The position numbers and the translations under genes were made by a program. From an uncultured Methanosarcinales archaeon (GTDB lineage: Archaea; Nanobdellota; Nanobdellia; Woesearchaeales; GW2011-AR4), in assembly GCA_964396095.1 (NCBI GenBank), contig CAYNCK010000088.1:1-61117 (forward strand): a stretch of DNA of 61,117 nt, read 5' to 3'. Below the pieces are notes generated by a model. It did not search any database. It was given only the letters and a program-made list of their open reading frames with translations, and was not told the origin of the DNA. This document shows, one piece after another, positions 5,619 to 54,677 of the stretch; positions within the stretch are counted from its first letter, which is position 1; every line of letters starts with the position of its first letter.

Positions 5619-5793
5619 AATCAATTCATTCTTTCCTTGACTGGCTTTTGTCCTCAGAAAACCTAAATAAGGATAAATCTATTGAAATCCTTACAATCCA
5701 TTCCATCTCTCTGCTGCCTATCAATCAGATAAATGCTCAAAAACAAAAATTGCGATACCAACGCCCGCAATCAGCCATCCGGCCTTATTAGTA

Positions 5794-14618: not shown

Positions 14619-14795
14619 GGTTATGACTCTGGGAAATTACATTTCAGTGTGATAGTTCTACTAAGTGTCAATGCGTCATCTATTTCTTTTCAATATTACA
14701 AAATCTTAATTTTTTATATAAATTATAAACTTTTGGATAAAATGCGAAAACTTTATATAAGAAGGGAGTTCTATAATCCTATAAATGGGGGTCTT

Positions 14796-26121: not shown

Positions 26122-28271
<2,150 letters not shown>

Positions 28272-36083: not shown

Positions 36084-36899
36084 ATGGAAAAGGAATTAGT
36101 TCAAAAATACGAAAATATGAAAAATGAAATAAAAAAGTTAGATTCAGCGATAATTGCATTTTCCGGTGGAGTTGACAGCGCATTGGTTTTAAAAATTGCT
36201 TATGACGTTTTAAAGGAAAAATTGATTGCAGTCACTGCGGACAGCCCTTCATTGCCGAGAATGGAGCTAGAAGATACAAAAAGAATTGCAAAATCTATTG
36301 GAGCTAAACATCTTATTATAAGCACAGAGGAAACAGAAAATGAAAATTACATTAAAAACCCAAATAACAGATGCTACTACTGCAAAACTGAGCTGTATTC
36401 AAAGTTAAAAAAAATATCAAGCGAACTTACAATAAAAAATATCCTTAACGGCACAAATTTTGATGATATAGGCGAATACAGGCCCGGGTTGAAGGCAGCT
36501 GGTGAATTCAAGATAATAAGCCCGTTAAAAGATGCGAAGTTCACAAAGAATGATGTGAGGGAGCTGGCAAAATACCTTGGCTTGCAGATTTGGGACAAGC
36601 CATCAAGCCCCTGCCTTTCATCAAGAATACCTTACGGAAACGAGGTCACAATTAAAAAGCTGGCCATGATTGAGAACGCAGAAAATTTCCTAAAGGATTT
36701 TGGAATAATAGAATTAAGGGTAAGGCACTTTGGGCAAAAAGCTAGGATTGAAGTAAGGGAAGATGATAGGCATGTTGTCAATAAAAATTTCGATTTAATA
36801 CAAAAAATGTTTAACAAAATTGGCTTTGAAGAAATAGAAATTTCAATTTTCAAGAGCGGAAACCTGAACGTGGTGCTGAATGTACAACCAGAAAATTAA
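36084..36899 (+). CDS. larE: Nickel-pincer cofactor sulfur transferase
   Basis: AFSGGVDS PP-loop, RCYYCK, GTNFDD...YRPG, WDKPSSPCLSSRIPYG. Confidence 0.92.
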   Translation: MEKELVQKYENMKNEIKKLDSAIIAFSGGVDSALVLKIAYDVLKEKLIAVTADSPSLPRMELEDTKRIAKSIGAKHLIISTEETENENYIKNPNNRCYYCKTELYSKLKKISSELTIKNILNGTNFDDIGEYRPGLKAAGEFKIISPLKDAKFTKNDVRELAKYLGLQIWDKPSSPCLSSRIPYGNEVTIKKLAMIENAENFLKDFGIIELRVRHFGQKARIEVREDDRHVVNKNFDLIQKMFNKIGFEEIEISIFKSGNLNVVLNVQPEN

Positions 36900-37626
36900 G
36901 GCAGTTATGGAAAAAGTAAAGAAAGGGAAACTCAAGGTAGATGACGCACTAAAAAAATTGAAATTCATGCCATTTGAAGACCTGGGATTTGCGAAAATTG
37001 ACCACCACCGCGCTTTGAGGAAAGGATTTCCAGAAGTTGTTTTCTGCCAGAACAAGACGAAGGAACAGGCTGTCAGCATAATGAAAAGAATGGCAAGTGT
37101 CAATTCCACTATACTTGGAACAAGGGCAAGCGAAGAAATGTTCAATGAAGTTAAAAAGCAAATTAAGAACGCACAATACAATAGAATATCTAAAACAATT
37201 ATAATAAAAAATCAAAAAAATAAAATAACCAAAAAGGGAAAAATACTTGTCTTAAGCGCAGGAACTTCTGATATGCCGGTTGCCGAGGAAGCCGCTGTTG
37301 TTGCTGATGCAATGGGGAATAAAGTTGAAAAGATTTACGATGTTGGCGTTGCAGGATTGCATAGATTATTGGGCAACAAGGAAAAAATATCTGATGCGAA
37401 TGTTCTTGTTATAGTTGCAGGAATGGATGGGGCATTGCCAAGCGTTGTCTCAGGATTGTTTGACAAGCCCATCATTGCAGTGCCCACATCTGTCGGCTAC
37501 GGAGCTTCATTTAAGGGAATTGCACCATTATTGACAATGCTTAACTCATGCTCGCCAGGGGTTGTCGTCGTCAATATCGACAACGGATTTGGCGCAGGGT
37601 ACTTTGCAAGCCTGATAAACAAATAA
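36880..37626 (+). CDS. larB: Nickel-pincer cofactor carboxylase/hydrolase
   Basis: AKIDHHR..RKGFPEVV, AGTSD.PVAEEA, DVGVAGLHRL, AGMDGALPSV, VPTSVGYGA, VVNIDNGFGA. Confidence 0.94.
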   Translation: MYNQKIKAVMEKVKKGKLKVDDALKKLKFMPFEDLGFAKIDHHRALRKGFPEVVFCQNKTKEQAVSIMKRMASVNSTILGTRASEEMFNEVKKQIKNAQYNRISKTIIIKNQKNKITKKGKILVLSAGTSDMPVAEEAAVVADAMGNKVEKIYDVGVAGLHRLLGNKEKISDANVLVIVAGMDGALPSVVSGLFDKPIIAVPTSVGYGASFKGIAPLLTMLNSCSPGVVVVNIDNGFGAGYFASLINK

Positions 37627-37627
37627 A

Positions 37628-38788
37628 ATGAAAACTCTATACTTCGATTGCTTTTCAGGAATAAGCGGAGATATGGTAGTTGGGGCTTTGATAGATTTGG
37701 GATTGGATGTTAATTATTTAAAAAATGAATTGAAAAAACTTAATCTAAAATATTATAATATTTCTTCAAGAAAAATTGTCAAGAGTGGAATTTCAGCAAC
37801 AAAATTCTATGTTATTGAAAATAACAAGCACCACCATGACGAAAGAAATCTGAACGAAATAAATAAAATCATTGGCAACTCAAAATTTGACAATGAAATA
37901 AAAAACACAATTAAAAATATTTTCCTAAAAATCGCTTCGGCAGAGGCAAAAATCCACAACAAGCCCATTGGCAAAATACATTTTCATGAGGTTGGCGCCA
38001 TTGACACAATTGTTGATATTGCGGCAGCTGTTATTGGAATTAAAAAATTAAATATTGATAAAATATGCTGCTCAAAACTCAATGTAGGGACTGGGTTTGT
38101 TGAATTCTCCCACGGAAAATTTCCTGTTCCTGCGCCTGCAACTGCTGAAATACTAAAAAATATTCCCATTTACAGCAATAATATCGAAGCAGAGCTGGTA
38201 ACTCCAACAGGCGCTGCAATAATCTCAACACTCGCAAAAAATTTTGGAGAAATGCCTATGATGAAAGTGGAAAAAATCGGTTATGGCGCTGGAACAAAAG
38301 ATTTGGAGCAGCCGAATGTTTTGAGGGTTTTTATGGGAGAATCTAAAAATGACAAAAACGAACCGATAAACATAATTGAAACAAATATTGACAACATGAA
38401 TCCTGAGATTTATCCTTACGTTATAGACAAATTAATGGAAAACGGGGCATTGGATGCTTATTTGACAAACATAATAATGAAAAAAGGAAGGCCAGCTGTA
38501 AAATTAAGCGTTTTGTGTGAAATTAAAGACACCGACAGGCTGTCAACTATAATTTTTGACGAAACGACCACTCTCGGTATCAGGATTTTTCCCGCAGACA
38601 GGAAAACTCTTGAAAGGGATATAAAAATTGTAAAAACAAAATATGGAAATGTAAGAGTGAAGATTTCAAGACTAAACGGTAAAATTAAAAATATAACTCA
38701 CGAATTCGAGGACTGTATTAAAATTGCGAAACAGAAGAATATCCCTCTAAAGAATGCCTATGGAGGGTTGAAAAACAAAGAATTATGA
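37628..38788 (+). CDS. larC: Nickel insertase
   Basis: FDCFSGISGDM, AEAKIH...IHFHEVGAIDT, HG.FPVPAPAT, ELVTPTGAAI, ETNID, MKKGRP, ETTTLGIR. Confidence 0.94.
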   Translation: MKTLYFDCFSGISGDMVVGALIDLGLDVNYLKNELKKLNLKYYNISSRKIVKSGISATKFYVIENNKHHHDERNLNEINKIIGNSKFDNEIKNTIKNIFLKIASAEAKIHNKPIGKIHFHEVGAIDTIVDIAAAVIGIKKLNIDKICCSKLNVGTGFVEFSHGKFPVPAPATAEILKNIPIYSNNIEAELVTPTGAAIISTLAKNFGEMPMMKVEKIGYGAGTKDLEQPNVLRVFMGESKNDKNEPINIIETNIDNMNPEIYPYVIDKLMENGALDAYLTNIIMKKGRPAVKLSVLCEIKDTDRLSTIIFDETTTLGIRIFPADRKTLERDIKIVKTKYGNVRVKISRLNGKIKNITHEFEDCIKIAKQKNIPLKNAYGGLKNKEL

Positions 38789-39508
38789 CTTTCTGGCTGC
38801 TTGTTCAAGCCTTGATTGAGGACTTGGGGGATTCTGGGTGACTCCTTGCATGCCGCTTAGTGTTCTCAGAAGCAGGTGCATATAACCTGTTGTTAATAAG
38901 CCATTCTCCAAATGCTGTTTTGCTTCTTCCCTTAGAGGTTCATCTGTTGGGTGGCGCATCAGTTCATAAGCGCCGGTAATATTCACTAAGCCAAGTGAAC
39001 GATAAGGTGAAGCGTGACCATTTGAGCTGTTAATAACTACAAATTCTCTCCTAACTGTATCTTTTAAATCACTTAATCCTGGATGACCAACAGCTCGTAA
39101 TTCACTGGCTACTTCTTCCTTATCGAGTGATTCAAGTTTTATACCTCCAGAAATATCCCTTTTCATATAACCCACCAACGCATCAAGTTGCATCAATTCC
39201 CAGAAATTTGCAAGAGCAATTTCACTTTGTGCAAGGTCTTTTTCCAGCAAACTGGCAAAGGAAGTAGAAAGATGCAAGTTGGCCAAGGAATGCACTCTTG
39301 TTCCATTGCCGGAATGGTTCCTCACTATTTGTTCATAATTCTGTCTTAATCTTTGTATGCCGCCATTGGTTTGAAACGCGTAAATGAATCTTGAAACCGC
39401 ACCATCCATAAGGAGGCTATTTGGTGAATTTGGCACTGGAATGCCTAAACTTTCAATTGCCTGTTTTTGGTAAGGAAGAGTTGATTGTGCCTGTTCCATT
39501 CGAATCAC
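38783..39508 (-). CDS. Hypothetical protein (241 aa)
   Basis: ATG ORF convergent with larC; no motif recognised. Confidence 0.6.
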   Translation of the reverse strand: MIRMEQAQSTLPYQKQAIESLGIPVPNSPNSLLMDGAVSRFIYAFQTNGGIQRLRQNYEQIVRNHSGNGTRVHSLANLHLSTSFASLLEKDLAQSEIALANFWELMQLDALVGYMKRDISGGIKLESLDKEEVASELRAVGHPGLSDLKDTVRREFVVINSSNGHASPYRSLGLVNITGAYELMRHPTDEPLREEAKQHLENGLLTTGYMHLLLRTLSGMQGVTQNPPSPQSRLEQAARKS

Positions 39509-39593
39509 CTATTCATACATATTAATAATTCCTATATTAAATATCTGGCAAAAATAGTATATTTTATATATTTTTGACAAATACATAACTTTT

Positions 39594-40238
39594 ATGACAA
39601 ATTTAACCCATGAAGTGTGGAATTATCTTGATTCTGAGCCTAGCATTAGGAGGGAGCTTAACAGGGGCATTGTCAACACCATGGCTTTGGCAAAGCATAT
39701 TGTAAAAGCAAAAAACCTAAATAGCTCTGTTGATGCAGTCATCAGCTCAATAAGAAGATATGTAGCTGAACAAAGGCATGATCTCAAATTTCATAATGTT
39801 GAAAACATAATAAAATCATCAAGAATATCAACAAAAAACAAGATTGCTTTAATAGCAATGAAGCGAGATCCTATCATAATAGAGCTGTTGCCAAAGGTGT
39901 TTCCGCTGATAGAGCTGAACCGGGGAGATGTCATGAGGCTGTCCGAAGGAAAAGAGTCAATCAAGCTGCTTGTTGATGAAAAAAACGTCCAGAAGATAGT
40001 AAGCATTTTCCCTGAAAACAAGCTGATAGGGGTAACAAAAAACCTAAGCGAGCTTAGCATTCTTTTCGGACCAGGGGCGCCTGAGACTGTCGGAGTCCTT
40101 GCAACAATAATCAATGAGATTGCCGCAAACAACATCAACATTGTAGAGTCAATCGGCTGCATTCCGGAATACATGATTTTTGTTGACAACAAAGATATAT
40201 TGAAAGCGCATGAGATAATGATTAAGCTGTGCGGGTAA
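39594..40238 (+). CDS. Helical N-domain + ACT-domain protein (amino-acid-sensing regulator-like), paralogue 1
   Basis: GIVNTMALAKHI..SVDAVISSIRRY; C-terminal ACT (ETVGVLATIINEIAANNINIVE). Confidence 0.7.
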   Translation: MTNLTHEVWNYLDSEPSIRRELNRGIVNTMALAKHIVKAKNLNSSVDAVISSIRRYVAEQRHDLKFHNVENIIKSSRISTKNKIALIAMKRDPIIIELLPKVFPLIELNRGDVMRLSEGKESIKLLVDEKNVQKIVSIFPENKLIGVTKNLSELSILFGPGAPETVGVLATIINEIAANNINIVESIGCIPEYMIFVDNKDILKAHEIMIKLCG

Positions 40239-40344
40239 ATTTTGTTAAAATCAATTATTATTCTAGCACACTTAATTTTATCACATAATTTTTTACTATT
40301 TTGTAGTAATATTTATAAACAGACTTTGGGTACTACTAAGTACA

Positions 40345-41973
40345 ATGATTGATATGCCTGTTGATCTTTTTAGATACGAAAGATTAAGCACTAGACGAAT
40401 GCAGATTTTAAAAAAAGAAGTATTTAGCAGGCTTGATCCACAATACAAGACTCATGATCCTTGGATGTTTGATTCTTACGGAAAAGTTTCACAAATGCTT
40501 TCAGGTATTCTCTCTTTAGAATCTAGTGGTGATTGTATTTATGATACTATGGCTGGGATTGAATTATTAATCCATAGGTTATTTGGCCAATCTATGCAAA
40601 CAAAAAGAGATCCTTTTATTGATGAATCTTTAGTTGCACAATACCTTTTGAATAGAAATGCGGAGGGTATTGTTGTGCTCAAAATAGGCGAAGATAAACT
40701 TCCGGCTATTCGTGGGTTAGATGCTGCTGTAAGGGAATTTGATGAGGTTGTTAATGCCCTAAATCTTGATATAATTTTGGGATGTGGGCGAATCTATCCA
40801 GTTATATCAAATCCGCATGACAATTTTTATTTATTAGGTTTAGAGATGAGAGGCATTGTTTTGCAGAGAATAAACTCTCAACCAGAATTCAGAGAAAAAA
40901 TGAAGTTGCTTCACCGATTTCAAAATGCATTGCCATTTCGCACAGTTTATGGGGACCCATATTTGGATGTACTATCAGAATTAGTTCCAAACGGAGAGGA
41001 ATTTCGACCAGATGCAATACATGATTTTATGAAAATATTTAGAAATGAGAGCCAGTCGGTGGCTAAAGAATTAGGATTCATGCAACACTCTTTACAAAAT
41101 GCCTTTAATTTTGACGGACTGCAAATTTCATATGGAAATCCGCGAGATAACCTTAGTGATTCTGTCCCTTCCTGTGTCAATGGGCTTATAGGAATAATTA
41201 GGGAAGCATCTATAGTCTACGAAGCAGATCCGAATATTGAAATAATCGGAATAGTCCCCTACTTATGCCCTTCAGATTTAATTCCAACAGCACAAAAAAG
41301 ATTGGACCAAATTGTAAAAGCGATTACTATAAAAGTTCGCGACAGAGAAGCAAACAATGAGACAAAGCTAATCGTTGACGGTGTGATTGCGGATGATAAG
41401 TTAGAACGTATGCTCGGGGTTGATTGGCGACCTTATATGGCTATAGGAATTTTAAAATATGCTCAAGACAAGGGAATAGCAAGAGTAATTATTAATGCAG
41501 AAAATAGCGACAGTCATGAAAGTGTCAATTCATTTAAGTATTTTATTGCAACCGAAGTTTTGAATTTACAAGAAGGAACGGATTTTTCCTACAAAATTGA
41601 GAGGAGGACTGGCAATCCTATTTTTAAATTAGGTAGTATTCATATAAGAAATCAAATTGATAATTTTCCCTATACCCACCTTTTAGATAAAGATCCAATG
41701 CCAGAAGCTGAAGTAAAAAGATTAGCAAGGAGTGGATTATATCAAGGCGAAGCTTATCTTGACGCTTGGCATGAATGGATAGTATATGTAATCCGTCACA
41801 GGGATAAACTGGGTCTAGAATTTAAGACAAGATTCCCTTATGTAGAACAAAGAAATCCTACCATGAATCCGGTATGGAATCTGGGGCGCGGTCCCGTAGT
41901 TGGAATGGAATTGGATGTACCATCAGTATTGCCAAGATTACAAAGAAGATATTTACCTAATGTGGCGGAATAA
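40345..41973 (+). CDS. Hypothetical protein (542 aa), C-terminal half weakly LOG/SLOG-like
   Basis: QISYG...GLIGIIREA...IEIIGIVP resembles LOG LVYGG..GLMG.VA..VIGV.P; weak. Confidence 0.55.
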   Translation: MIDMPVDLFRYERLSTRRMQILKKEVFSRLDPQYKTHDPWMFDSYGKVSQMLSGILSLESSGDCIYDTMAGIELLIHRLFGQSMQTKRDPFIDESLVAQYLLNRNAEGIVVLKIGEDKLPAIRGLDAAVREFDEVVNALNLDIILGCGRIYPVISNPHDNFYLLGLEMRGIVLQRINSQPEFREKMKLLHRFQNALPFRTVYGDPYLDVLSELVPNGEEFRPDAIHDFMKIFRNESQSVAKELGFMQHSLQNAFNFDGLQISYGNPRDNLSDSVPSCVNGLIGIIREASIVYEADPNIEIIGIVPYLCPSDLIPTAQKRLDQIVKAITIKVRDREANNETKLIVDGVIADDKLERMLGVDWRPYMAIGILKYAQDKGIARVIINAENSDSHESVNSFKYFIATEVLNLQEGTDFSYKIERRTGNPIFKLGSIHIRNQIDNFPYTHLLDKDPMPEAEVKRLARSGLYQGEAYLDAWHEWIVYVIRHRDKLGLEFKTRFPYVEQRNPTMNPVWNLGRGPVVGMELDVPSVLPRLQRRYLPNVAE

Positions 41974-42217
41974 ATCTTTTACATAATATTTATAATTAAA
42001 GATTAATTCTAAATAATTATGCATGTACTGGTTTTTAGATCTTCCTAGCTTTTATTTTTTCAAACCCTTCAAACAATTTCTTAACATTTCCTTTTCCAAG
42101 CGCCAATATATAAGTTGCAAGCTTCTGACTCCTTTCCTTGTTCAAAATAAAACTTATAATGACTATTTAGTAGTTACTTTAGAAAGATTTATAAATAAAA
42201 TCCCATTAATCAAAATT

Positions 42218-42568
42218 ATGCCTACAGATGCAAATTTAAATTATCCTGCATTGTCTCTTGTGATAAGTCCTTATGAATATAAATCCACTGATAAAATACA
42301 GGGAGATTTAGAAAAAGTTATGCGATTATTAAGAAGTTCAGAACAGTTATTATATGAGGAAATCTCAAAAGACAAAGTTGAATCTGATTTAGCTGTTATG
42401 GTGAATAATCTTTGGGCATTACAAAGGAATTCAAGATACAATGGCGGCTTTCTTTTAACCGATGAGGGTTTGGAATATAGAAAAACATATATGGGAAGGC
42501 ATGGAATTGACATAATTTTCATGGGTGCTGATGGAAGTGTTGTTAAAATTGGCCTCCCAGATGAATAA
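42218..42568 (+). CDS. Hypothetical protein (116 aa)
   Basis: ATG 42218 after TATA-like TTTATAAATA; upstream ORF extension is AT-rich noise. Confidence 0.5.
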   Translation: MPTDANLNYPALSLVISPYEYKSTDKIQGDLEKVMRLLRSSEQLLYEEISKDKVESDLAVMVNNLWALQRNSRYNGGFLLTDEGLEYRKTYMGRHGIDIIFMGADGSVVKIGLPDE

Positions 42569-42577: not shown

Positions 42578-44269
42578 TCAAACCCCTTCAAACAGTTTCG
42601 CAACTTTTTCTTTTCCAAGCGCTAGTATAAAAGGCGCAAGCTTTGGCCCTCTTTCTTTATTTAGTAAAACTTTGTAAGCTGCCTTGAACAAATCATTTGG
42701 CTCAATTTTTAATTCATCCTTGGCAATCCTGTAAAATTCGTTGAACAAAGTTTTCTCATCCCATTTTTCTTTCCTTAATTTTTCAGCAAGCAGATGGAGC
42801 GCTTTCTTCTGATGCTGGTTCAGCTCAATATTTTCAGGAATCTTGTGCTGGAATATGAATTTATACTGCTCATCGGCAAATTCTTTGACCCATCTCTTTG
42901 CGAATGCAAGCCTTTCCCCAACATAAACAATTTCTTCTTTTACAGCGTCTTCAGCAAGCTGGCCGGTTTCCCTCAGGGAATTCATAATCAGTTTTTCATC
43001 ATCAAAAATCTGCACTAAGATTGAAGCCTGTGAAAGGCTGACCTGAGGTGGAATTCTTTTAGGGATTTTTCCGACATGGCTTAATTCATAAATTCTTCTT
43101 TGCCTTGAATTTTCTTTTTCTCCAAGGTCATCTTTTCCAAAATAAACCCTTTCAGCCTGGTCGTATCTTTCATAAAGCAAAATCAAATCATTTGTGTAAG
43201 GGTCAAAATCAATTGCGGCATTTGGCCTTGTCCTTATGAGCATGAACCTCAGCATCTTTGCAGGCGCATAATTTACAGAATCTGCAAATCCAAGCCCCTG
43301 TCCTTTGGAAGTTGACATTTTCTTGCCGCCAACATTAAAAAATTCATATCCCGGGCCTGTTTCATAGCCGTTTGAAGGATAAGGCGGTGGGTAGTCAAAA
43401 ACATCAACTGCTATTCTGCATGCTGCAGTGCGTGATCCTCCTCTTGTGAAATGGTCTTTCCCAGCTGTTTCAACTATAACGCTATTTGTCGGCCATTTTG
43501 CAGCCCATTCGACTTTCCATGGAAATTTTCCATTGCCATCATAGGGGAAAATCCATCCTTTATGGCCGCACCCTTTTGCCCATTTCACAACATCGTTTCT
43601 GCATTCAAAAAATATTTTTTCATTTTTGCCGTCCCATTCAGTCGCAAGGGTTGTGGAAATTTTTTTGCAATGCGGGCAAAGGATATTGAAAGGAAGCTTG
43701 CTTGCCGCAGCGACATCATCACCGTACAAATCCCTGTAAATTTTTTGAATTCTGTCTGCGTAATCCAATGCAATTTTTATTGTCCTGTTGAAAGAGCCTT
43801 TTTCATATTCATGGCCTGTGCTTTCAAGGTGCGCTTCAATCCCAAAATCAGGAAATAATTCCGTGCATTGCGAAAAATAATAATCCCCAAAGCTTTTGTA
43901 GCCTTTTACAGGGCTTGGAATATACCTAAAGGGAACTCCGATGTATTTTTCGTTTTCTTTTTCAGTTAATTCTTTAGAAGGCTTGTCCAATGGATCCATG
44001 TCATCGCTGCTCAGGATGAATTTTGCTTTTACTCCTTTGTCGCGAAGGGCTTTCACAATTGCATCATGTATTACCCATCCCCTGCCTGAGCCTATATGTA
44101 TTGTTCCTGAAGGGGTTTTCTCGTCCATGACAATATAGCCGTGCTTTTTGACAAGGCTTTTCAGCAGCTCATTTCCCTCAACCCTTTTGATTGCCTCATC
44201 AGCAACCTGGTCTGCCCAAAATGAATCTTCGAAACTTTTACCGATAGGGCTTTTTTTATCCATAAACAC
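42578..44269 (-). CDS. lysK: Lysyl-tRNA synthetase class I
   Basis: WAD, TPSG.IHIGS, SDDMDPL, KFPWKVEWAAKW, GKDH, KMSTSKG, RGPKLAPFI. Confidence 0.95.
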   Translation of the reverse strand: MFMDKKSPIGKSFEDSFWADQVADEAIKRVEGNELLKSLVKKHGYIVMDEKTPSGTIHIGSGRGWVIHDAIVKALRDKGVKAKFILSSDDMDPLDKPSKELTEKENEKYIGVPFRYIPSPVKGYKSFGDYYFSQCTELFPDFGIEAHLESTGHEYEKGSFNRTIKIALDYADRIQKIYRDLYGDDVAAASKLPFNILCPHCKKISTTLATEWDGKNEKIFFECRNDVVKWAKGCGHKGWIFPYDGNGKFPWKVEWAAKWPTNSVIVETAGKDHFTRGGSRTAACRIAVDVFDYPPPYPSNGYETGPGYEFFNVGGKKMSTSKGQGLGFADSVNYAPAKMLRFMLIRTRPNAAIDFDPYTNDLILLYERYDQAERVYFGKDDLGEKENSRQRRIYELSHVGKIPKRIPPQVSLSQASILVQIFDDEKLIMNSLRETGQLAEDAVKEEIVYVGERLAFAKRWVKEFADEQYKFIFQHKIPENIELNQHQKKALHLLAEKLRKEKWDEKTLFNEFYRIAKDELKIEPNDLFKAAYKVLLNKERGPKLAPFILALGKEKVAKLFEGV

Positions 44270-44314
44270 AAAAAGAGCAAAACATTATATAAAGATTGTG
44301 GAAAAGAAAAAGAA

Positions 44315-45814
44315 TTATCTCAATTCTGCTTTTGTAAACGGAAATAATATGACTTCCTTGATTGATTTTTGGTCTGTCAGAATCATTGTAAGCCTGTCAA
44401 TTCCGATTCCAAGTCCTCCTGTGGGGGGCATGCCGTATTCTAAAGCCCTTAGGAAATTTTCATCCAGCCTCAGATGCGGATTATTTTGGCCTTCTCTTCT
44501 GATTTGCTCTTCAAAAAGCTTTCTCTGTAGAATTGGATCGTTCAGTTCTGTGTAAGCATTTCCAATTTCCATTCCGGCAATGTAAGGCTCAAATCTTTCT
44601 GCGAGTCCGGGTTTTTCCCTGTGCGGCTTGCATAACGGGGTTGACTCAATTGGGTGGTCTGTGATAAATACTGGACCATCCAAATGCGGTTCGACATAAG
44701 TTCCAAATAATCCAAGAACAATTTCGCCTTTAGACATATCCCTATAATCACCAATTTTTTCTTCTGATCTGGCAGCAAGATGAGTTTTTAATTCCAGCTG
44801 GTTCATCTTCTCAACATCTGTTCCGGTATATTGTTTTACAGCATCATACATTGTTAATCTTTGCCAGGGCGTCCTCAATTCAATTTCTTTCCCTTGGTAA
44901 TTTATTTTGGTTTTTCCAGTAATAATTATGGCAATTGCGGATATCATTTCTTCTGTCAGTTCCATAACTTTATGGTAGTCGCAATTTGACATGTAAGCTT
45001 CCATCATCGTGAATTCAGGATTGTGGGTGCTGTCAATCCCTTCATTCCTGAAATTCTTGCCAATAGTATAAACTCCCTGAAATCCGCCTACAATCAGTTT
45101 TTTAAGGTAAAGTTCAGGAGAAATTGAAAGGAAATGTTCCTGGTTTAGGGAATTAACATGTGTTATAAATGGAGCCGCTGATGCACCGCCGTAAATAGGC
45201 TGAAGAGTTGGAATTTCGACTTCCATATATCCTTTGCCATCCAAAAATTTTCTCATTTGAGAAATTATTTTTGACCTTTTCATGAAAATTTCAGCAACTT
45301 CGGGGTTTGCAATCAAGTCAAGGAATCTTTGTGAATATCTTATTTCTGGATCAACTAATCCGTGGTGCTTATCGGGCAGCGGCCTTAGTGATTTTGAAAG
45401 CATCGCGAAATCGCGGACATTCATTGAAAACTCGCCTGCTCTTGTATTGAAAGTTGTTCCTTCCGCACCCATAAAATCTCCAATATCAAAAAAATCCTTA
45501 AGAAGAGAATACACATCTTCTCCTAATTGCCTTTGGTTCAAATAAAGTTGTATGGTTTGCCCCCCTTCCCGTAAATCAAGAAATGTAGTTTTTCCATGCC
45601 CCCTCCATGCAACTATCCTTCCGGCAATCTTTGCTTCCAGTCCAATTTGGCTTTTACCAATCAATTCCGGAATTCTGTCTTTAGCATCGTAAAAATGCGG
45701 ATACGGGTCTATGCCCATTCGTCTCAATTCTTCAAGTTTTCGCAGTCTTACTGGGTCAATTCCTGCGTTTGAATCCGTATTTTGCACTCTGTTCTCGAGA
45801 ACTTCGTCTGACAT
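44315..45814 (-). CDS. lysS: Lysyl-tRNA synthetase class II
   Basis: OB fold (AGRI..RGHGK..FLDL), YSQRFLDL, GGASAAPF, SPELYLK, FRNEGID.THNPEFT, GNAYTELNDP, MPPTGGLGIGIDRL. Confidence 0.96.
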   Translation of the reverse strand: MSDEVLENRVQNTDSNAGIDPVRLRKLEELRRMGIDPYPHFYDAKDRIPELIGKSQIGLEAKIAGRIVAWRGHGKTTFLDLREGGQTIQLYLNQRQLGEDVYSLLKDFFDIGDFMGAEGTTFNTRAGEFSMNVRDFAMLSKSLRPLPDKHHGLVDPEIRYSQRFLDLIANPEVAEIFMKRSKIISQMRKFLDGKGYMEVEIPTLQPIYGGASAAPFITHVNSLNQEHFLSISPELYLKKLIVGGFQGVYTIGKNFRNEGIDSTHNPEFTMMEAYMSNCDYHKVMELTEEMISAIAIIITGKTKINYQGKEIELRTPWQRLTMYDAVKQYTGTDVEKMNQLELKTHLAARSEEKIGDYRDMSKGEIVLGLFGTYVEPHLDGPVFITDHPIESTPLCKPHREKPGLAERFEPYIAGMEIGNAYTELNDPILQRKLFEEQIRREGQNNPHLRLDENFLRALEYGMPPTGGLGIGIDRLTMILTDQKSIKEVILFPFTKAELR

Positions 45815-46076
45815 TATTTTCAGTAAGATTACACCTTTTAAAAGTCTTTCCTTGTTCGGGACTATGTTAATTTGCTACTTTCAATATAACTTTAATTGTT
45901 AGGAATTTCCATAAAAGTTTAGTGTATTGGTTTTAAAAACCCATCCATTGCAAACGATGGGGAATTCCTAACATTAAATATACCCATCCCCTTTGGGCGG
46001 TTGGGATTTTTATTTCAATTTATACAAAAAAATTTTAATAAACTTTAAAAGCGGCGATACGTTCCCAGTATATACC

Positions 46077-47078
46077 ATGGATGAGCCTAAAATAAAGTTG
46101 GCTTACTTTACGTCGTTCAGGGAAATAATTGGCGACGAGCAGGTAAGCAAAATTGTTATTGACCCTGAAACCACTGTAAATTATGGCTACAGGTTGGGAA
46201 ACCTAGAAGCAATGGCTCTGGACATCCAGAAAGGTGAAAGTGATTTTGCAAAAACATTTGAGCTTGTTATGATTTTTTCTGATGATAATGCGCAAGAATT
46301 TCAGGAGTCTAAAGATTCGGTTCATAAATGGCCACTAGATATTAAATCGCCTGCAAAGCAAATTATTGGGATTGAAGTACCGGTTGACACGCTTGAAGAT
46401 TTGCTTGTGAGAGTTCCTTCAGAGCCGTGGAGAATAATTAAAGATCCCAATCAAAAGGCGCTTCAGAAAGCATTGTATGAGCAGCAATTTCTCAATGTTA
46501 TAAATGAACGCCAGGTTGATTTGGTATTTTCAGATAGTTATCGCCCGCTATTCAGCCCCAGAACTGTAAATGCAAATTTTGGACACATAGTAAATATACA
46601 TCCTGCGATTCTCAATAAAGAAAGCCCGTATAGGCTTCCGGGCATTACTCCAACCAGGGATGCTTTTACCAGACTAAACTACGGATATGTTATAGTTGAT
46701 GATAAAAAAGACCGCGATATTTGGCCAAAAGGGGAGGTAATAGAAGTCGAATATCAAGGAAAAGTGAGAGTGGCAGTCAAAGTTCCTCGGCACAATAAAA
46801 CCGGAGTCACAGTTCATGTAATTAACGAAAAAGTTGACGACGGGCCTATCATAATTGATGAAGTCCGTGAAATAAATGCGGCAGACACATATGAGCAAAT
46901 CAGGGAAGGCAATTACCAGCTAAAAATGGAGTTACTGCCAAAAGCTCTTATGCATTATGTTCAGTCATTTCGACTTGGTGGTGCAGATGTCAGCGATATG
47001 ATATTAGTAAGGAGAGAATCATTGCTCAGAAATGGACCGACACAAACACGTTACGGGCTTGCTCAAGGACCTAATTGA
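46077..47078 (+). CDS. Divergent 10-formyl-THF-dependent formyltransferase (PurN-like)
   Basis: IVNIHPAIL..LPG, TGVTVH.INEKVDDGPII retain Asn/His/Asp catalytic residues; start taken as ATG 46077. Confidence 0.7.
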   Translation: MDEPKIKLAYFTSFREIIGDEQVSKIVIDPETTVNYGYRLGNLEAMALDIQKGESDFAKTFELVMIFSDDNAQEFQESKDSVHKWPLDIKSPAKQIIGIEVPVDTLEDLLVRVPSEPWRIIKDPNQKALQKALYEQQFLNVINERQVDLVFSDSYRPLFSPRTVNANFGHIVNIHPAILNKESPYRLPGITPTRDAFTRLNYGYVIVDDKKDRDIWPKGEVIEVEYQGKVRVAVKVPRHNKTGVTVHVINEKVDDGPIIIDEVREINAADTYEQIREGNYQLKMELLPKALMHYVQSFRLGGADVSDMILVRRESLLRNGPTQTRYGLAQGPN

Positions 47079-48174
47079 AATTCCTTCTGTCTTTCCGAAT
47101 GAGGAAAACATCAGTAAATACTGCGCTGATTTCCTGAAAAATTCCGAATTTAAAGTTGAGCTTGTTGAAATAGGAAAAAACAGGCACAATGTTGTTGCCA
47201 CAAAAGGCAGTCAAAGAAAATCAATTCTTCTTTTTGGCCATCTTGATACCGTTCCTCCATATAATTATTCTAAAAATCCTTATCAAATGGAAACAAACGG
47301 CGATAAAATAACTGGTTTGGGCTCTTGGGACATGAAGTCTGGGCTTGCAATAATTCTTTCCTGCGCGTCAAAAATTCGTCCAAAAAATGTTGGTGTAAAA
47401 ATTGTTTTTAGCGCCGATGAGGAAAATAATTCCCTTGGAAGCCATGTAACCTACACAAGTGATTTTTTGAAAAATGTTTTATTGGCAGTTACCCCGGAAA
47501 TTATTGACAATGCGGATGAATCAAAAAATAAAAATGTAATTCTTCTCGGCAGAAGAGGGAGAATAGTATTTCGGTTAGAAGTAAAAGGGATTGCAGGGCA
47601 CGGTGCATCTTTAAAGGGAGTAAGTGCAATCTCAGTTGCTTCGGAAATTGTGCAATATCTTGAGCAATTAAAATTCAAAAATCACGATTTCCTTGGCAAT
47701 ACGACACTTTTTGTAAGGAAAATTGAAGGAACATCAACATCGCTTTCATTGCCTGAAAAATGCGAAATATTATTGGACATCCATTATGTTCCGCCTTATA
47801 ATGAAAATTCACTTCTTGCGGAAATTGAAAGTGCATTAATACAACAATTTTCAATTTATACTGCCAAAGGCGTAAAAATATCACTGGAAATTCAAAAAAG
47901 AAACACCCCTTACCTAAAGCCGTACATAACTGACAAAAATAATCTTTACGTGAAAAAATTCATAAGCCTTTTGTCAAATAAAATCAAAAGCCTTAGAATT
48001 TCAGCGGGCCAAACCGTAGCAGATGAAAATATTGTTGGCAGTTTTGGCGTTCCTGTTGTAACTATGGGGCCAATTGGAGGCGAAGCCCATAGCTTAAATG
48101 AATGGGTTTCAAAAAAAAGCATCATAGAAATTGAAAAAATATATGTTGATGCTGTTCAGGAAATGGTAAAATGA
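47032..48174 (+). CDS. M20 metallo-amidohydrolase (DapE/ArgE-like)
   Basis: GHLDTVP, GLGSWDMKSG, ADEE, GRRG, VKGIAGHG, GEAHSLNEWV. Confidence 0.85.
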   Translation: MDRHKHVTGLLKDLIEIPSVFPNEENISKYCADFLKNSEFKVELVEIGKNRHNVVATKGSQRKSILLFGHLDTVPPYNYSKNPYQMETNGDKITGLGSWDMKSGLAIILSCASKIRPKNVGVKIVFSADEENNSLGSHVTYTSDFLKNVLLAVTPEIIDNADESKNKNVILLGRRGRIVFRLEVKGIAGHGASLKGVSAISVASEIVQYLEQLKFKNHDFLGNTTLFVRKIEGTSTSLSLPEKCEILLDIHYVPPYNENSLLAEIESALIQQFSIYTAKGVKISLEIQKRNTPYLKPYITDKNNLYVKKFISLLSNKIKSLRISAGQTVADENIVGSFGVPVVTMGPIGGEAHSLNEWVSKKSIIEIEKIYVDAVQEMVK

Positions 48175-48251: not shown

Positions 48252-49616
48252 ATGCCAGAATCATATTTAAAACCAGGATTGGTTGTCCTCGGAATTGGAA
48301 CTGTTGGTGGATCAGTATTGTACCAGCTTATCCACGACAATAAACTTTCTAGTTTTGAAAGCGTTGATGTCGGAGACTCAAGACATATACTCCATGGGTT
48401 AACTACCGAGAGGGATTTAAATTCTATTCTTGAAGCAAAGGCATGTCATCAGCATCTTGATACAATTGATTCTTTAAGAGGGCGCCTGGACAGCATAAAA
48501 AATCTTCCTAAATATTTTAAACGAAATGGCATTGTAATCAATGCGTTGCCGACTTATTTTCCGAATCCCGGTGATTTGCAAGAGCAGGAGCATGACAGCA
48601 TTGTATATGTTAAGCAGGCTCTATTGGGCGGAGCACATGTCATTAATGCAACCAAATCACAATTTGGAGACCAAGAAAAGCACGATGGCATTATGGATGC
48701 CGCATTTTTAGGAGGGGCTCGCCATTACCCGACTGGAGCATTTATGGGCCCTGCTAAAGTTGCGGAATTGCTGCAAGAGATTATCGGCAGTGGTTCAAAA
48801 ATTAAAAGTGCGGTTGGTGTTGTAAACGGAACTACAAATTTCATGCTAACTGAAATGATATATAATGGCCTGGATTATAATTCTGCTTTGGATATGGCCC
48901 GTTCATTGGGACTTGCCGACGGTGATGGTAAAGCCGATACACATGGCCATGACCCCCTCAGCAAGATTAGGGTTCCTGCAATTCTTTCTAGAAACTATGT
49001 TTCAAGTCCTCAAGAATTATATGGATTAAATGACGAAAGTAAAAGCGGATTAACTCATCCACATTTCGAATTGTTACAAGGAGAAAAAATATTAGGTATT
49101 GAAGGAGTCACAAATAGCCTTTTAGAAGCATTAGGGAAAATGTCCAAGACACTAAAACTAGTTGGCTCGTATAATGGTCAAACAGGCCATGTTGAGGTTG
49201 GGCCAAGAGTATTGTCTCTTGATCATCCTCTCGCTAATTTGAAAGGTACTGAAAATATGGCAATTTTTAATTTGGAGGGAAGAATAGATATGTTGGGTAT
49301 ATTGATGTCAGTTTTTCCAGAACCCACAATTGAAAAATTGAACGGAGATGGCATAGAAAGATACAGGATTGAAAATGGTTTTCATATGCCAGGAAATAAT
49401 TCACACTCAAAAAGAGATAGATATACAATTCATCTTAGCTACGACCCAAAAGAAAACGTGTTTACTGTAAGGGCACCGGGAGCTGGAAATGGCCACACAG
49501 CACACGCATTATTGGAAACTGCCGAGGGAATCGGAAGGAATGAATATGCAATAATTCGTCAAGCACGACAAGCTGCAAAAGAATCACGAAAAAATCCTCA
49601 AGACGCTATGCCGTAA
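48252..49616 (+). CDS. Divergent homoserine dehydrogenase-like protein
   Basis: LGIGTVGG Rossmann motif, GVVNGTTNFMLTEM, A..LGLAD...ADTHGHDPLSK, GAG. Confidence 0.7.
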   Translation: MPESYLKPGLVVLGIGTVGGSVLYQLIHDNKLSSFESVDVGDSRHILHGLTTERDLNSILEAKACHQHLDTIDSLRGRLDSIKNLPKYFKRNGIVINALPTYFPNPGDLQEQEHDSIVYVKQALLGGAHVINATKSQFGDQEKHDGIMDAAFLGGARHYPTGAFMGPAKVAELLQEIIGSGSKIKSAVGVVNGTTNFMLTEMIYNGLDYNSALDMARSLGLADGDGKADTHGHDPLSKIRVPAILSRNYVSSPQELYGLNDESKSGLTHPHFELLQGEKILGIEGVTNSLLEALGKMSKTLKLVGSYNGQTGHVEVGPRVLSLDHPLANLKGTENMAIFNLEGRIDMLGILMSVFPEPTIEKLNGDGIERYRIENGFHMPGNNSHSKRDRYTIHLSYDPKENVFTVRAPGAGNGHTAHALLETAEGIGRNEYAIIRQARQAAKESRKNPQDAMP

Positions 49617-49618: not shown

Positions 49619-50695
49619 CTACAAATACCCTTTCGCTTTCAGTAATTCTGCAGTTAGAATCGCTCCGCCTGCAGCGCCTCTTATTGTGTTGTGCGACAGT
49701 GCAATGAATTTCCATCCTAATACATTATCTTTTCTTAATCTTCCAACTGAAATGCCCATTCCCTTTTCAAAATTCCCGTCAAGCTTTGTCTGAGGCCTGT
49801 CTTCTTCATTAAAGTATTTCATGAACTGCTTTGGAGCGGAAGGCAATTTTAAACCTGCAATAGGATTTTTGTAATTATTGATTGCATTAATAAAATCTTT
49901 TTCACTTATATTTTTTGAAAGCTTAATTTCAACGCTTGCCATATGCCCGTCTGCAACAGGCACTCTTATGCATGTCGCTGAAATTGCTGGCTTTGTTGCA
50001 AGTTTTATTCCATTATTATCCACTCTTCCAAGTATTTTCATTGGCTCATTTTCTGATTTTTCCTCTTCATTGCTTATGAAAGGCACCACATTGCCAATGA
50101 TTTCAGGATAATTTTCAAAAGTTTTTCCTGCGCCTGAAATGGCCTGCAAAGTAGTTACAATAACATCCAGAGGCTTATATTTTTCAAGCGCTTTTATAAC
50201 GGGCACATAAGACTGAATTGAGCAGTTCGGCTTTACTGCTATGAATCCTTTTTTCCAGCCCCTGTTTTTCTTCTGCAAATCTATAAGGCGGATATGTTCA
50301 GGATTAATTTCAGGCATCATCATTGGGACATCTTTTGTCCACCTGTGCGCTGAATTGGTTGAGACAACAGGAATCCCTTTTGATGCATAAGCCTCCTCGA
50401 TTTTTATTATTTTTTCCTTATCCAAATCAAGTGCAGAGAATACAAAATCAGCTTCTTTGCATATTTCATTAATGTCTTCTTCCACTCTTTTTACAATGAG
50501 ATTTTTGGAAAAATCGGGAATTTTTGGTTCTATCTTCCATCTTCCTTTGACTGCACCCCCATATCTTTTGCCAGAAGAATTTGGCGATGCCGCTAAGCAT
50601 GTCACTTCAAACCACGGATGATTGTCAAGCAGTGAAACAAATCTCTGCCCCACCATTCCAGTTGCGCCCAGTATGCCTACTTTTATCTTCTTCAT
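49619..50695 (-). CDS. asd: Aspartate-semialdehyde dehydrogenase
   Basis: ILGATGMVGQRF, KPNCSIQ, QAISGAG, ATCIRVPV..GH, SHNTIRGAAGG. Confidence 0.96.
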   Translation of the reverse strand: MKKIKVGILGATGMVGQRFVSLLDNHPWFEVTCLAASPNSSGKRYGGAVKGRWKIEPKIPDFSKNLIVKRVEEDINEICKEADFVFSALDLDKEKIIKIEEAYASKGIPVVSTNSAHRWTKDVPMMMPEINPEHIRLIDLQKKNRGWKKGFIAVKPNCSIQSYVPVIKALEKYKPLDVIVTTLQAISGAGKTFENYPEIIGNVVPFISNEEEKSENEPMKILGRVDNNGIKLATKPAISATCIRVPVADGHMASVEIKLSKNISEKDFINAINNYKNPIAGLKLPSAPKQFMKYFNEEDRPQTKLDGNFEKGMGISVGRLRKDNVLGWKFIALSHNTIRGAAGGAILTAELLKAKGYL

Positions 50696-50700
50696 TTTGT

Positions 50701-52005
50701 TTACCCGAAAAACTCCTTATGAAGGCACCGAACAGCTTTTTCAGCGTCTTTTCCTTCAACAATGAATGTGATGTTTATTGCAGATGCCCCTTGTGAAATC
50801 ATTTCAACATTTATATTATTGCTTCCAAGCACAGTGAATACCTTTCCTGCAATCCCTTTAACAGCTTTCATCCCCTCTCCGACAGCGCATATTATTGCCT
50901 TGTTTTTTTCAATCTGAATTGCCCCTATATCTTCAAGTTCAGCTATAATTGTTTTGAGCCCGTCATCATTGTCCACTGTAAGTGAAACGCTGACCTCGGA
51001 TGTTGCAACCACATCAACGCTTTTTTTGTAGTCGTCGAATGTGTCAAATACCCTTGCCAGGAATCCATAGGCTCCAAGCATTCTTGTGGATTCTACATTT
51101 ATCAGTGTAATGTTTTTCTTGCAGGCAATTGCTTTTATTACACTTGTTCTTTTTTCAATAGCCTTGTAAATAGTTGTCCCCTCATTGCCGGGCTCAAACG
51201 AGTTCAACACTTTTACAGGTATTTTTTTCTCCATTGCAGGCAGTAATGTCTTTGGGTGCAGGACCTTCGCTCCAAAGTATGCAAGCTCTGACGCCTCTGC
51301 AAAAGACACCCTTTTCATTGTACTGGCATTTGGGACAATTTTTGGGTCAGTTGACATTATTCCGTTAACATCTGTCCAGATTTCAATCTCATCTGCATCA
51401 ATGGCAGCGCCGACAATTGCTGCAGTGTAATCAGAGCCTCCCCTTCCGAGAGTTGTAATATCTCCATTTTCTGACTTTGCAATGAATCCGGTTATTACAG
51501 GAACAATCTTTAGTTTTTTGATATTTTTTTTAAGATTATAATAAGCGGCGTCGAGCGGCTCTGCATTTCCGAATTCAGAGTCTGTAAAAAATCCAAGTTC
51601 CCACGAGTCAAAGCTCTTTGATTTTATCCCGATTTTATTGAGCTGCGCTGCAACAATCCTCGATGACAGTCTCTCTCCAAAAGACTGAAAATGATCCAGA
51701 ATTTTGCCGTCAGGATTATTATTTTTTGCATTGCTGAACAATGATTTTAATTCTTCAATATTTTCGTCCAAAAGCGTTTCTTCTAAATCGAGCTCTTCAA
51801 TTATTTGCTTGTGTGTTTTTATTATATGCTTCAAAATCTTTTCATCTTTTTCTTTTGCCAGCTTTATCAGCGCATCTGTCATTTTTGAGACTGCAGAAAC
51901 CACAACAACTGGCTTTTTCTTAATCCTTGACTTAATAATTTGAGCAGCGTTCTTTATCCTTTCGGCATTTCCTAAAGAAGTGCCGCCAAATTTCATTACT
52001 ATCAT
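50701..52005 (-). CDS. lysC: Aspartate kinase
   Basis: MKFGGTS, SFGERLSS, TTLGRGGSDYTA, WTDVNG, GAKVLHP, two ACT domains. Confidence 0.96.
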   Translation of the reverse strand: MIVMKFGGTSLGNAERIKNAAQIIKSRIKKKPVVVVSAVSKMTDALIKLAKEKDEKILKHIIKTHKQIIEELDLEETLLDENIEELKSLFSNAKNNNPDGKILDHFQSFGERLSSRIVAAQLNKIGIKSKSFDSWELGFFTDSEFGNAEPLDAAYYNLKKNIKKLKIVPVITGFIAKSENGDITTLGRGGSDYTAAIVGAAIDADEIEIWTDVNGIMSTDPKIVPNASTMKRVSFAEASELAYFGAKVLHPKTLLPAMEKKIPVKVLNSFEPGNEGTTIYKAIEKRTSVIKAIACKKNITLINVESTRMLGAYGFLARVFDTFDDYKKSVDVVATSEVSVSLTVDNDDGLKTIIAELEDIGAIQIEKNKAIICAVGEGMKAVKGIAGKVFTVLGSNNINVEMISQGASAINITFIVEGKDAEKAVRCLHKEFFG

Positions 52006-53177
52006 TTCAAATGCCCCCTTATCCTGTCTGCCGCTTTTTTTGTTTCTTCAATTGTTGGAACTAATGCAAACCTGACGTATTTTTCACCAGGGTTAAATCC
52101 TTTGGAGTTGTTTGAAATCCATGAGCCGGGGGTTACAACTATCGCAATATTCTTTTGCAATAATTTTTTTGCAAAGCTTACAGAATCGTATTTTTTTGGC
52201 ACTCTTTGCCAGATGTATATGGTCGCATCTGGAGTGCAGTCTTCCATTCCAACTGATGTAAATGCATCAACCAAAATGTCTCTCTTCTTTTTGTAGCCAC
52301 TCCTCATTTTTTCAACATGTTTTTCATCATTCAATGCGGAAATTGCGGCATCCTGTATGAATGTTGGAGTGCCTGAATCTATATTTGTCTTCAATTTCCT
52401 GAAAGCGGAGATTATATTACCATCGCCTGCAATCCATCCTATTCTGTAGCCGGTCATCGCGCTTCTTTTTGACAAAGACTGGAATGCAACAGTTCCTTCT
52501 TTTGAAAATTCAAGTATTGAATGGGGCTTTTCGCCGAAATAAATTTCAGTATAGCACTCATCGCTTGCAATAATTATGTTATTGTCATGCCCGAAGTCAA
52601 CAGCTTGCTTAAAAAATTTCCTTGCTGCAACAGCTCCAGTAGGATTATTTGGATAATTAATCCACAATATCTTTGATTTTTTCACGACATCTTTCGGGAT
52701 GCTTTCTAAATCCATCAAAAAATTATTTTCCTTCAAAAGAGGAACAAAATAAGGATTTCCTTCTGCAAACAAAGTGCCCCTTTCATAAGGCGGGTAGCCG
52801 GGATTTGGCATTATTGCATAATCACCTCGATTCAGGAATGCTTCTGGAAAATTAAATACAGCTTCCTTTGCGCCTATTGTTGAGGTTATTTCCTTCCCAA
52901 AATCAAGATTAACATTAAACCTTTTTTTGCACCATCTTGAAATTTCATTCCTGTATTCTTCTGTGCCGGCATTGCTCGGATACCCTGAGCTTTTTCTTGC
53001 ATCAACGGCTTTTTTTATCTCATTCCTTACAACTTCGGGGGTGGGCTCTTTTGGATCGCCAACTCCAAAATCAATCGGAGTTATCCCTAGATTTTTAAGT
53101 TTGGAAACTTCATCGTCCACTTCCGCAAAAGCATAGCCGCCAATGCTACCCAGCCTTTTTGATATTTGAATTTTCAT
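52002..53177 (-). CDS. PLP-dependent DAP-pathway aminotransferase (DapL/DapC type)
   Basis: FGVGDP, INYPNNPTG, SDECY, SLSKRSAMTGYRIG; inside dap operon; start taken as ATG 53177. Confidence 0.85.
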   Translation of the reverse strand: MKIQISKRLGSIGGYAFAEVDDEVSKLKNLGITPIDFGVGDPKEPTPEVVRNEIKKAVDARKSSGYPSNAGTEEYRNEISRWCKKRFNVNLDFGKEITSTIGAKEAVFNFPEAFLNRGDYAIMPNPGYPPYERGTLFAEGNPYFVPLLKENNFLMDLESIPKDVVKKSKILWINYPNNPTGAVAARKFFKQAVDFGHDNNIIIASDECYTEIYFGEKPHSILEFSKEGTVAFQSLSKRSAMTGYRIGWIAGDGNIISAFRKLKTNIDSGTPTFIQDAAISALNDEKHVEKMRSGYKKKRDILVDAFTSVGMEDCTPDATIYIWQRVPKKYDSVSFAKKLLQKNIAIVVTPGSWISNNSKGFNPGEKYVRFALVPTIEETKKAADRIRGHLK

Positions 53178-53181
53178 TTTC

Positions 53182-54444: not shown

Positions 54445-54677
54445 TTTGTTTATTATTTTATTTTCTTGTTTTTTAGTTATTGTTCAACTGCAAATTGATT
54501 TTGTTTGTTATTAATTTGGTTGTATAAGCATTTCCATTTTTTTGTATTTGATTTTTTGCTTATAATTTTGTTAAAGTTTTCATAAGTTATTGTCTTTCTA
54601 ACTTTTTGCCTGGGCATTTGAGCAACTCAATAAATATTTTAAAAAAAATTAATTATAAAAATATTCAAATCAAGAGC

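Follow-up and report, generated by a model that had tools for sequence, protein, structure and literature searches.

Class I and class II lysyl-tRNA synthetases encoded at the far end of a Woesearchaeal lysine biosynthesis locus

Why should an archaeal genome encode two structurally unrelated lysyl-tRNA synthetases (LysRS) within a few dozen base pairs of each other? The question is raised by positions 42,578 to 45,814 of a 61,117-nucleotide stretch of DNA, here called the window, which is contig CAYNCK010000088.1 of assembly GCA_964396095.1, deposited as coming from an uncultured Methanosarcinales archaeon and placed by GTDB in the Woesearchaeales (Nanobdellota; Nanobdellia; GW2011-AR4). Among the aminoacyl-tRNA synthetases, LysRS alone is, to our knowledge, represented in both structural classes. 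In an earlier note, made from the letters of the window and their open reading frames, the two genes were taken for one apparent operon and co-regulation was suggested. The analysis reported here leads to a different picture, to which we give a probability of roughly 0.68: the pair would consist of two separately promoted and catalytically competent LysRS genes at the distal end of a Woesearchaeal (DPANN) locus for lysine biosynthesis by the diaminopimelate (DAP) pathway, class I being the resident housekeeping enzyme and class II an accessory one.

The two synthetases and their junction

The genes under study are the following.

42578 to 44263, minus strand: class I lysyl-tRNA synthetase LysRS1, 561 amino acids from the ATG at 44263 (open reading frame, profiles, alignments)
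44315 to 45814, minus strand: class II lysyl-tRNA synthetase LysRS2, 499 amino acids (open reading frame, profile matches, structure alignments, clade membership)

LysRS1 matched the class I profiles PF01921 (278 bits) and TIGR00467 (376 bits, cutoff 147.6, residues 33-559) and aligned end to end with the solved Pyrococcus horikoshii structure 1IRX. Its HIGS, KMSTSKG, GKDH and YEF segments fall in register with HVGN, KMSGSKG, GKDH and YEF of that structure, and the Cys cluster is also present. Following the work on 1IRX, we take the first two to be the HIGH-type and KMSKS-type Rossmann signatures and GKDH and YEF to be segments of the lysine pocket. An alternative GTG at 44269 would extend the reading frame to 42578-44269 (563 amino acids). 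The ATG at 44263 is the likelier start, because the database protein has 561 amino acids and because the N-termini of orthologues (MQNK...FEDSFW) and the position of the TATA box agree with it. LysRS1 is 75-83% identical to orthologues of many Woesearchaeota, and its closest homologues (54-83% identity) are labelled Woesearchaeota or Nanoarchaeota. Some Woesearchaeal class I enzymes are longer (670-850 amino acids) and carry extra tRNA_bind (PF01588) or B3_4 (PF03483) domains, e.g. P0063, P0066, P0072, P0073, P0094, P0108 and P0114.

LysRS2 combines an N-terminal OB anticodon-binding domain with a class II core bearing motifs 1-3, and its Pfam domains are PF01336 (residues 62-136) and PF00152 (residues 156-494). 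Scores against the curated models TIGR00499 (540 bits, cutoff 427.6) and NF001756 (605, cutoff 468) lie above their cutoffs, and the protein aligns end to end with solved LysRS structures, including 3A74 and 1E1O. Motifs 1-3 (FRNEGIDSTHNPEFTMMEAY, ERFEPYIAGMEIGNAYTELNDP and GGLGIGIDRL) are in register with those of the LysRS from Geobacillus stearothermophilus, Thermus thermophilus and Escherichia coli, and the lysine- and ATP-binding motif residues are invariant across the clade to which LysRS2 belongs. The protein thus looks wholly canonical in sequence. Two related protein types were considered as identities for it and ruled out. EpmA/PoxA/GenX, the EF-P lysine ligase, is a LysRS2 paralogue that consists of the catalytic core and has no anticodon-binding domain; the OB domain is present here, and the TIGR00462 score of 236.5 falls below the cutoff of 286.9. 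LysX, a LysRS-MprF fusion of about 1100 amino acids, is incompatible with a protein of 499 amino acids and with an NF002821 score of 522 (cutoff 742), a match confined to profile positions 623-1100.

Conservation was scored on alignments of about 110-120 homologues per class, counting deviations at columns that are at least 95% conserved. LysRS1 deviates at 1 of 142 such columns and LysRS2 at 2 of 95 (D to E and R to K, both conservative); the median over all sequences is 1 in each class. By this measure neither synthetase gene shows decay. Exact-sequence look-ups of both window synthetases returned no match. Profiles, structure alignments and conserved columns therefore bear out what had been noticed at the outset, namely two full-length synthetases with intact motifs on the same strand, 45 bp apart when measured to the GTG and 51 bp apart when measured to the likelier ATG at 44263.

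The junction between the genes is crossed by Logan contigs from two sequencing runs belonging to two different studies, X1 (43521-45018) and X2 (44004-44828). Because these contigs were built independently, the junction is no chimera or assembly artefact, a risk that had been raised in the earlier note.

Predicted promoters and gene order at the locus

Three elements in and around the short intergenic regions bear on how the pair may be transcribed.

44286 to 44303, minus strand: predicted class I promoter, a transcription factor B recognition element (BRE)-like TTCCACAATC at 44294-44303 and a TATA box TTTATATA at 44286-44293, conserved in relatives
44302 to 44314, minus strand: T-rich tract TTCTTTTTCTTTT that follows immediately on the class II stop codon (from sequence)
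45835 to 45842, minus strand: predicted promoter box of class II, TTTAAAAG, of conserved type and at position -28 relative to its ATG (45814)

Lying within the spacer, the class I TATA box is a perfect match whose first base is at -30 relative to the ATG. The window contains more perfect TTTAWATA boxes than expected, 46 against 18.7, and no shuffle reached 46. Of the boxes that precede a gene by no more than 70 nt, 16 in all, 13 have their start between -34 and -27, counted from the ATG, and -30 is the modal position for first genes in the window. Such spacing is that of archaeal promoters with leaderless mRNAs, and the TATA box at -30 would imply a leaderless class I mRNA. No TTTAWATA box was found at promoter position in front of the operon-internal genes larE, larB, larC, M20, asd, lysC and dapA, defined as genes that overlap the preceding one or follow it by at most 5 nt.

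Furthermore, an 18-nt element, TTCCACAA(T/C)C-TTTAWATA, keeps a constant distance to the ATG of class I in nine species, represented by the window, L001, L004, L009, L010, L011, L017, L019 and L117, and the exact 18-mer occurs once in the window. The gene that precedes it varies among these loci and may be LysRS2, saccharopine dehydrogenase, aspartokinase-2, asd, homoserine dehydrogenase or another gene. Since the TATA box at -30 is perfect and the 18-nt element is kept in nine species whatever gene lies upstream, we read the spacer as a conserved, autonomous class I promoter.

Class II, for its part, has a TTTAAAAA-type box at about -31 in L001, L007, L008, L113, L115, L116 and L117, and in L008 it keeps this box of its own although it is preceded by asd on the same strand. 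The T-rich tract behind the class II stop could be a candidate archaeal oligo-T terminator of class II transcripts. An operon would have no promoter between its genes and a conserved arrangement; here the spacer holds TATA and BRE-like elements, class II has its own box and the adjacency is not conserved in relatives. These observations favour two transcription units with different promoters over the single, co-regulated operon proposed earlier. Control by a leader RNA also finds no place in this layout: riboswitches and T-boxes were absent from the window in Rfam searches (gathering thresholds and E<=1), and both genes appear leaderless, which would leave no room for such elements.

Gene order was compared in 22 loci obtained by scanning GTDB species genomes with the class I protein and screened by tblastn with the window proteins; relatives whose class I enzyme is 69-83% identical to LysRS1 are referred to as mainstream. 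The order dapB-dapA-lysA-aminotransferase-lysC-asd-(hsd)-LysRS1, with larC-larB-larE on the far side of class I, recurs in L009, L011 and L019 and in part in L004, L010 and L017. Where both classes are present at one locus, they share a strand and class II always precedes class I, separated from it as follows.

Window: 0 genes between class II and class I
L001-L003 (contigs from several samples): 1 gene between, of the saccharopine-dehydrogenase family; class I 78% identical to that of the window
L117: 2 genes between; class I 78% identical
L007: 3 genes between; class I 36% identical
L008: 4 genes between; class I 35% identical

The contigs L113-L116 end before any class I gene could appear. 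No class II gene was found in the upstream flank of class I, over about 4-10 kb, in L004, L009, L010, L011, L012, L013, L017 and L019. As a background control, metagenomes were scanned with the class II clade alignment through generic peptides (HNPEFTMM, LSISPE), which yielded 80 loci with ordinary class II enzymes (44-52% identity), and none of the 80 had class I or lysine genes nearby; a mainstream Woesearchaeal LysRS2 in L119 likewise has an unrelated neighbourhood. Co-location of the two classes is thus recurrent, occurring in at least five lineages, and the strict tandem is specific to this genome. The distribution of the tandem, which the earlier note had suggested examining, therefore upholds the association of the two classes at one locus and leaves their direct adjacency as a peculiarity of the window.

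Surrounding genes and the histories of the two synthetases

The synthetase pair ends a DAP-pathway lysine biosynthesis cluster that is encoded on the same strand, with three opposite-strand genes in between; on the other side lie genes leading to a lar cluster.

49619 to 56307, minus strand: DAP-pathway lysine biosynthesis cluster (profile matches), made up of the next six genes
55558 to 56307, minus strand: dapB
54678 to 55565, minus strand: dapA
53182 to 54444, minus strand: lysA
52002 to 53270, minus strand: DapL/DapC-like aminotransferase
50701 to 52005, minus strand: lysC, of the lysine-sensitive aspartokinase type
49619 to 50695, minus strand: asd
48252 to 49616, plus strand: HSDa, a divergent protein of the homoserine dehydrogenase family
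47032 to 48174, plus strand: M20 deacylase of the ArgE/DapE family, overlapping the formyltransferase-like gene by 47 nt
46077 to 47078, plus strand: PvdF/PurN-like formyltransferase-fold protein (FT-like), divergent from LysRS2
38783 to 42568: four genes between larC and class I, orf241 (minus strand), ACT214, orf542 and orf181
36084 to 38788, plus strand: larE-larB-larC, the syntenic neighbours beyond class I in relatives

The lysine cluster, which had been overlooked as the context of the pair, links the choice of synthetase to lysine biosynthesis. The FT-like protein next to LysRS2 is rare, with only 20 relatives, none of them named, in a word-based search of 5.8 billion proteins. Its AlphaFold model (pLDDT, the predicted local distance difference test, 84) best matches PvdF (6CUL, E 1.6e-15, 24% identity), an N10-formyltetrahydrofolate-dependent hydroxyornithine formyltransferase that formylates a basic amino-acid side chain, and with 52 bits for PurN against 18 bits for fmt it stands far closer to small-molecule formyltransferases than to Fmt. 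Because the lysine cluster shows no DapD, the FT-like/M20 pair could, speculatively, represent a formyl-protected variant of the acyl-DAP route. The divergent arrangement, in which M20 and the FT-like gene run away from LysRS2, recurs in the window, L007, L113/114, L115 and L117/118. The boxes in front of the FT-like gene (46040-46050) and of LysRS2 (45835-45842) are both of CTTTAAAAG type, about 28-34 nt before the respective ATGs, and may give the two genes a shared promoter character.

On the lar side, ACT214 (214 amino acids) matches weakly the ACT regulatory domain of aspartokinases, and orf241, orf542 and orf181 have no match in Pfam or NCBIfam. A tblastn search with all four genes in the related loci gave one match only, that of ACT214 in L011 at 25% identity. 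The distance from class I to larC is about 35 nt or less in L009, L010, L017 and L019 and about 400 nt in L004.

In GC content, GC at third codon positions and codon usage, neither synthetase gene stands out from the window: their codon-usage distances are 0.084 and 0.085, and the mean over the window is 0.116 +/- 0.025. Compositional tests gave no sign of recent transfer for either gene. The only tRNA gene found in the window is tRNA-Gly(GCC) at 3966-4039. No tRNA-Lys gene was detected there by ARAGORN, whether or not introns were allowed, or in Rfam searches extended to E=1, so that the tRNA-Lys(CUU) named in the earlier note could not be recovered by either program. There is likewise no special tRNA-like gene near the pair in the window, and 15 of 16 related loci are free of any tRNA, the one tRNA among them being a tRNA-His in L012.

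Elsewhere, the window encodes a purine-synthesis set of prs, purD, purF, guaA, two PurP-type (DUF1246/DUF1297) paralogues and purA (785-1759, 10507-11817, 14649-16340, 21406-22953, 23049-24176, 24612-25625 and 26134-27369) as well as a 5-formyltetrahydrofolate cyclo-ligase (5794-6534). Added to the complete lysine cluster, these genes seem to give a biosynthetic capacity larger than one would expect of a DPANN genome. An IS66-family transposase gene lies at 18142-19470 on the minus strand.

In a neighbour-joining tree of the best 120 class II matches, LysRS2 of the window groups with eleven other sequences, which share 53-63% identity with it, in a clade (bootstrap 100/100) where the window sequence is sister to the rest (100/100). 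Outside this clade, sequences of DPANN, of the Candidate Phyla Radiation (CPR) and of other bacteria are intermixed, all at about 50% identity, and between an archaeal and a bacterial sister this tree does not decide. Every clade member with readable context lies in a lysine locus (L001-3, L007, L008 and L113-L117), except that of L111, which stands beside a hisG/HisRS-like pair; five members are arranged back to back with the FT-like/M20 pair. The L111 pair, downstream of LysRS2 at 3876-5875, comprises a short HisG next to a HisRS-like gene with an HGTP_anticodon domain and gives a second example, in these archaea, of biosynthetic genes for an amino acid lying next to its synthetase or to a HisZ-like paralogue.

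Comparison of both proteins between loci gave the following identities.

Window and L001: class I 78%, class II 55%
Window and L007: class I 36%, class II 63%
L007 and L008: class I 40%, class II 69%

The first pair points to class I being more constrained than class II in the lineage of the window, and the three pairs together make the histories of the two synthetase genes incongruent across lineages. The class I proteins of L007 (6939-8603) and L008 (13977-15617) are only 35-36% identical to that of the window and 40% to each other, and the class II proteins of these loci reach 59-69%. In both, the Lys after KMSxS is replaced (KLSGSAG and KMSASLG), L008 has GKEY instead of GKDH, and there are 63-65 deviations at the 142 conserved columns. 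We considered decaying copies and rejected this explanation, since the active P. horikoshii enzyme deviates at 32 of the 85 columns common to Woesearchaeal and CPR class I enzymes, compared with 25-27 for these two proteins; they would rather form a distant class I lineage.

Class I LysRS of CPR bacteria (Parcubacteria/Paceibacterota and other contigs, L021-L029) are 34-37% identical to the window protein. Eighty-five highly conserved class I columns are common to the CPR and mainstream Woesearchaeal enzymes, 32 of which are not shared by P. horikoshii, a pattern suggesting that this type of class I enzyme was transferred between the DPANN and the CPR.

Possible roles of the pair and comparison with known systems

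We propose that class I serves the lineage as its resident housekeeping enzyme, with a fixed place between the lysine cluster and larCBE, its own BRE/TATA element and a leaderless mRNA, and that class II is an accessory second LysRS of a distinct clade, expressed from its own TTTAAAAA-type promoter. Both enzymes would charge tRNA-Lys and would be regulated independently as isozymes. The pair might form a "safety net" in which a fast class II enzyme is combined with a class I enzyme of different sensitivity to lysine analogues, as has been proposed for other dual-LysRS organisms. The one to four intervening genes seen elsewhere are missing in this genome, which brings the class II stop right up to the class I promoter. 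Three points weigh against this proposal. The view of class I as bearer of the translational load derives from conservation and synteny only; the loci with class I only come from seven GTDB relatives and one NCBI genome (L004), so that class II is dispensable at the locus in close lineages; and transcripts of class II may read through into class I, promoter function being judged here from sequence.

Several other explanations of the pair can be weighed against these results. It might capture a neutral stage of a class switch, in which one LysRS displaces the other after lateral transfer, the two are redundant and one copy is to be lost. Such a course has been modelled for dual-LysRS organisms (PMC1475646), and it would fit the patchy distribution, with class II absent from the locus in the eight relatives listed above and present outside any lysine locus in other Woesearchaeota. 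A brief overlap is, however, hard to reconcile with a clade that has diverged to 53-69% identity and kept its position and promoter in at least five lineages retaining class I, nor do the two window genes, which preserve essentially all highly conserved residues and have fully host-like codon usage, resemble a pair in transition; we therefore regard a neutral switch as unlikely. Long co-retention in one locus argues for some non-redundancy, and one may go further and suppose a real functional partitioning, in which a class II clade long kept beside class I in the lysine locus of a subgroup of Woesearchaeota, often with the PvdF-like formyltransferase and the deacylase, represents a stable two-enzyme solution. 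Class II might then be required while a formyl-protected DAP variant is running, if one of the classes fails to exclude its lysine-like intermediates; alternatively, each class might have its own tRNA-Lys isoacceptors or conditions to serve. We consider partitioning of this kind quite unlikely as the explanation.

The pair might also be co-transcribed and act as a complex on a non-canonical tRNA, as with tRNA-Pyl in Methanosarcina barkeri and tRNA-Other in Bacillus cereus. Joint action of LysRS1 and LysRS2 has precedent (PMC2916919, PMC1475646), and the genes do share a strand with a gap of 45-51 bp. Yet each has a conserved promoter of its own, one to four genes intervene elsewhere, and no tRNA-like gene accompanies the pair in the window or, leaving aside the tRNA-His of L012, in the related loci, so that a joint complex seems very improbable. 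A tie between class II and the FT-like/M20 module, whether for translation accuracy amid N-acylated or lysine-like intermediates or to supply Lys-tRNA for a non-ribosomal reaction, would account for the recurrent divergent arrangement, which is absent from loci with class I only; a best structural match that formylates basic side chains and the similar TTTAAAAG boxes of the FT-like gene and LysRS2 point the same way. Set against these are the class II genes of L001, L008 and L116, which adjoin no FT-like/M20 pair, the canonical LysRS2 with its invariant lysine- and ATP-binding residues, and the affinity of the FT-like protein to small-molecule formyltransferases rather than to Fmt, and we hold the chance of such a tie to be very slight indeed.

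The rarity with which the two classes co-occur, stated at the outset of this work, is well recognised (PMC1475646, PMC2916919). In the window two canonical enzymes are found in this known, rare combination, with an informative locus architecture and nothing mechanistic beyond that. Full-text literature searches turned up neither a DPANN archaeon described as having both LysRS classes nor an archaeal lysine cluster reported to contain LysRS genes. Organisms with both classes are natural experiments on how one LysRS class replaces or complements the other, and the locus described here provides a syntenic series in uncultured DPANN, with class I alone or with class I and class II 0-4 genes apart and with recognisable promoters, so that related genomes can be compared directly for the gain, loss and regulation of the second class.

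Among known systems, Methanosarcina species resemble the present case in being archaea with both classes at full length, lysK (class I) and lysS (class II), class I being the ancestral archaeal type and class II the addition (PMC1475646). In contrast to Methanosarcina, both genes here lie in a lysine biosynthesis locus, the class II gene belongs to a locus-specific clade, and no pylT-like or other special tRNA is nearby; the account of the Methanosarcina genes in PMC1475646 makes no mention of "adjacent" or "operon". In B. cereus and B. thuringiensis the two classes are separately regulated, one being the main and one the ancillary enzyme: lysS (class II) is the housekeeping gene, and lysK (class I) is under T-box control and belongs to stationary phase (PMC2916919). 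The Woesearchaeal pair would be alike in this division, although here class I is probably the resident enzyme and class II the accessory one, the reverse of the assignment in Bacillus. Leader RNAs are absent here, both genes being apparently leaderless, and the genes are co-located, whereas those of B. cereus occupy separate chromosomal sites. E. coli likewise has two active LysRS genes, lysS and lysU, each under an independent promoter, and expresses one constitutively and the other conditionally (PMC9437257), but they are close class II paralogues, whereas the enzymes of the window are structurally unrelated.

Finally, the locus recalls class replacement through a dual stage (Shaul, Nussinov and Pupko 2006), in that related lineages carry at this locus either class I alone or class I together with class II. 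Differences between the classes in turnover, and in how sensitive they are to lysine analogues, may make such a dual stage advantageous during replacement (PMC1475646). Unlike a transient replacement, the dual state at this locus persists across a deep divergence of class II (53-69% identity) and looks maintained.

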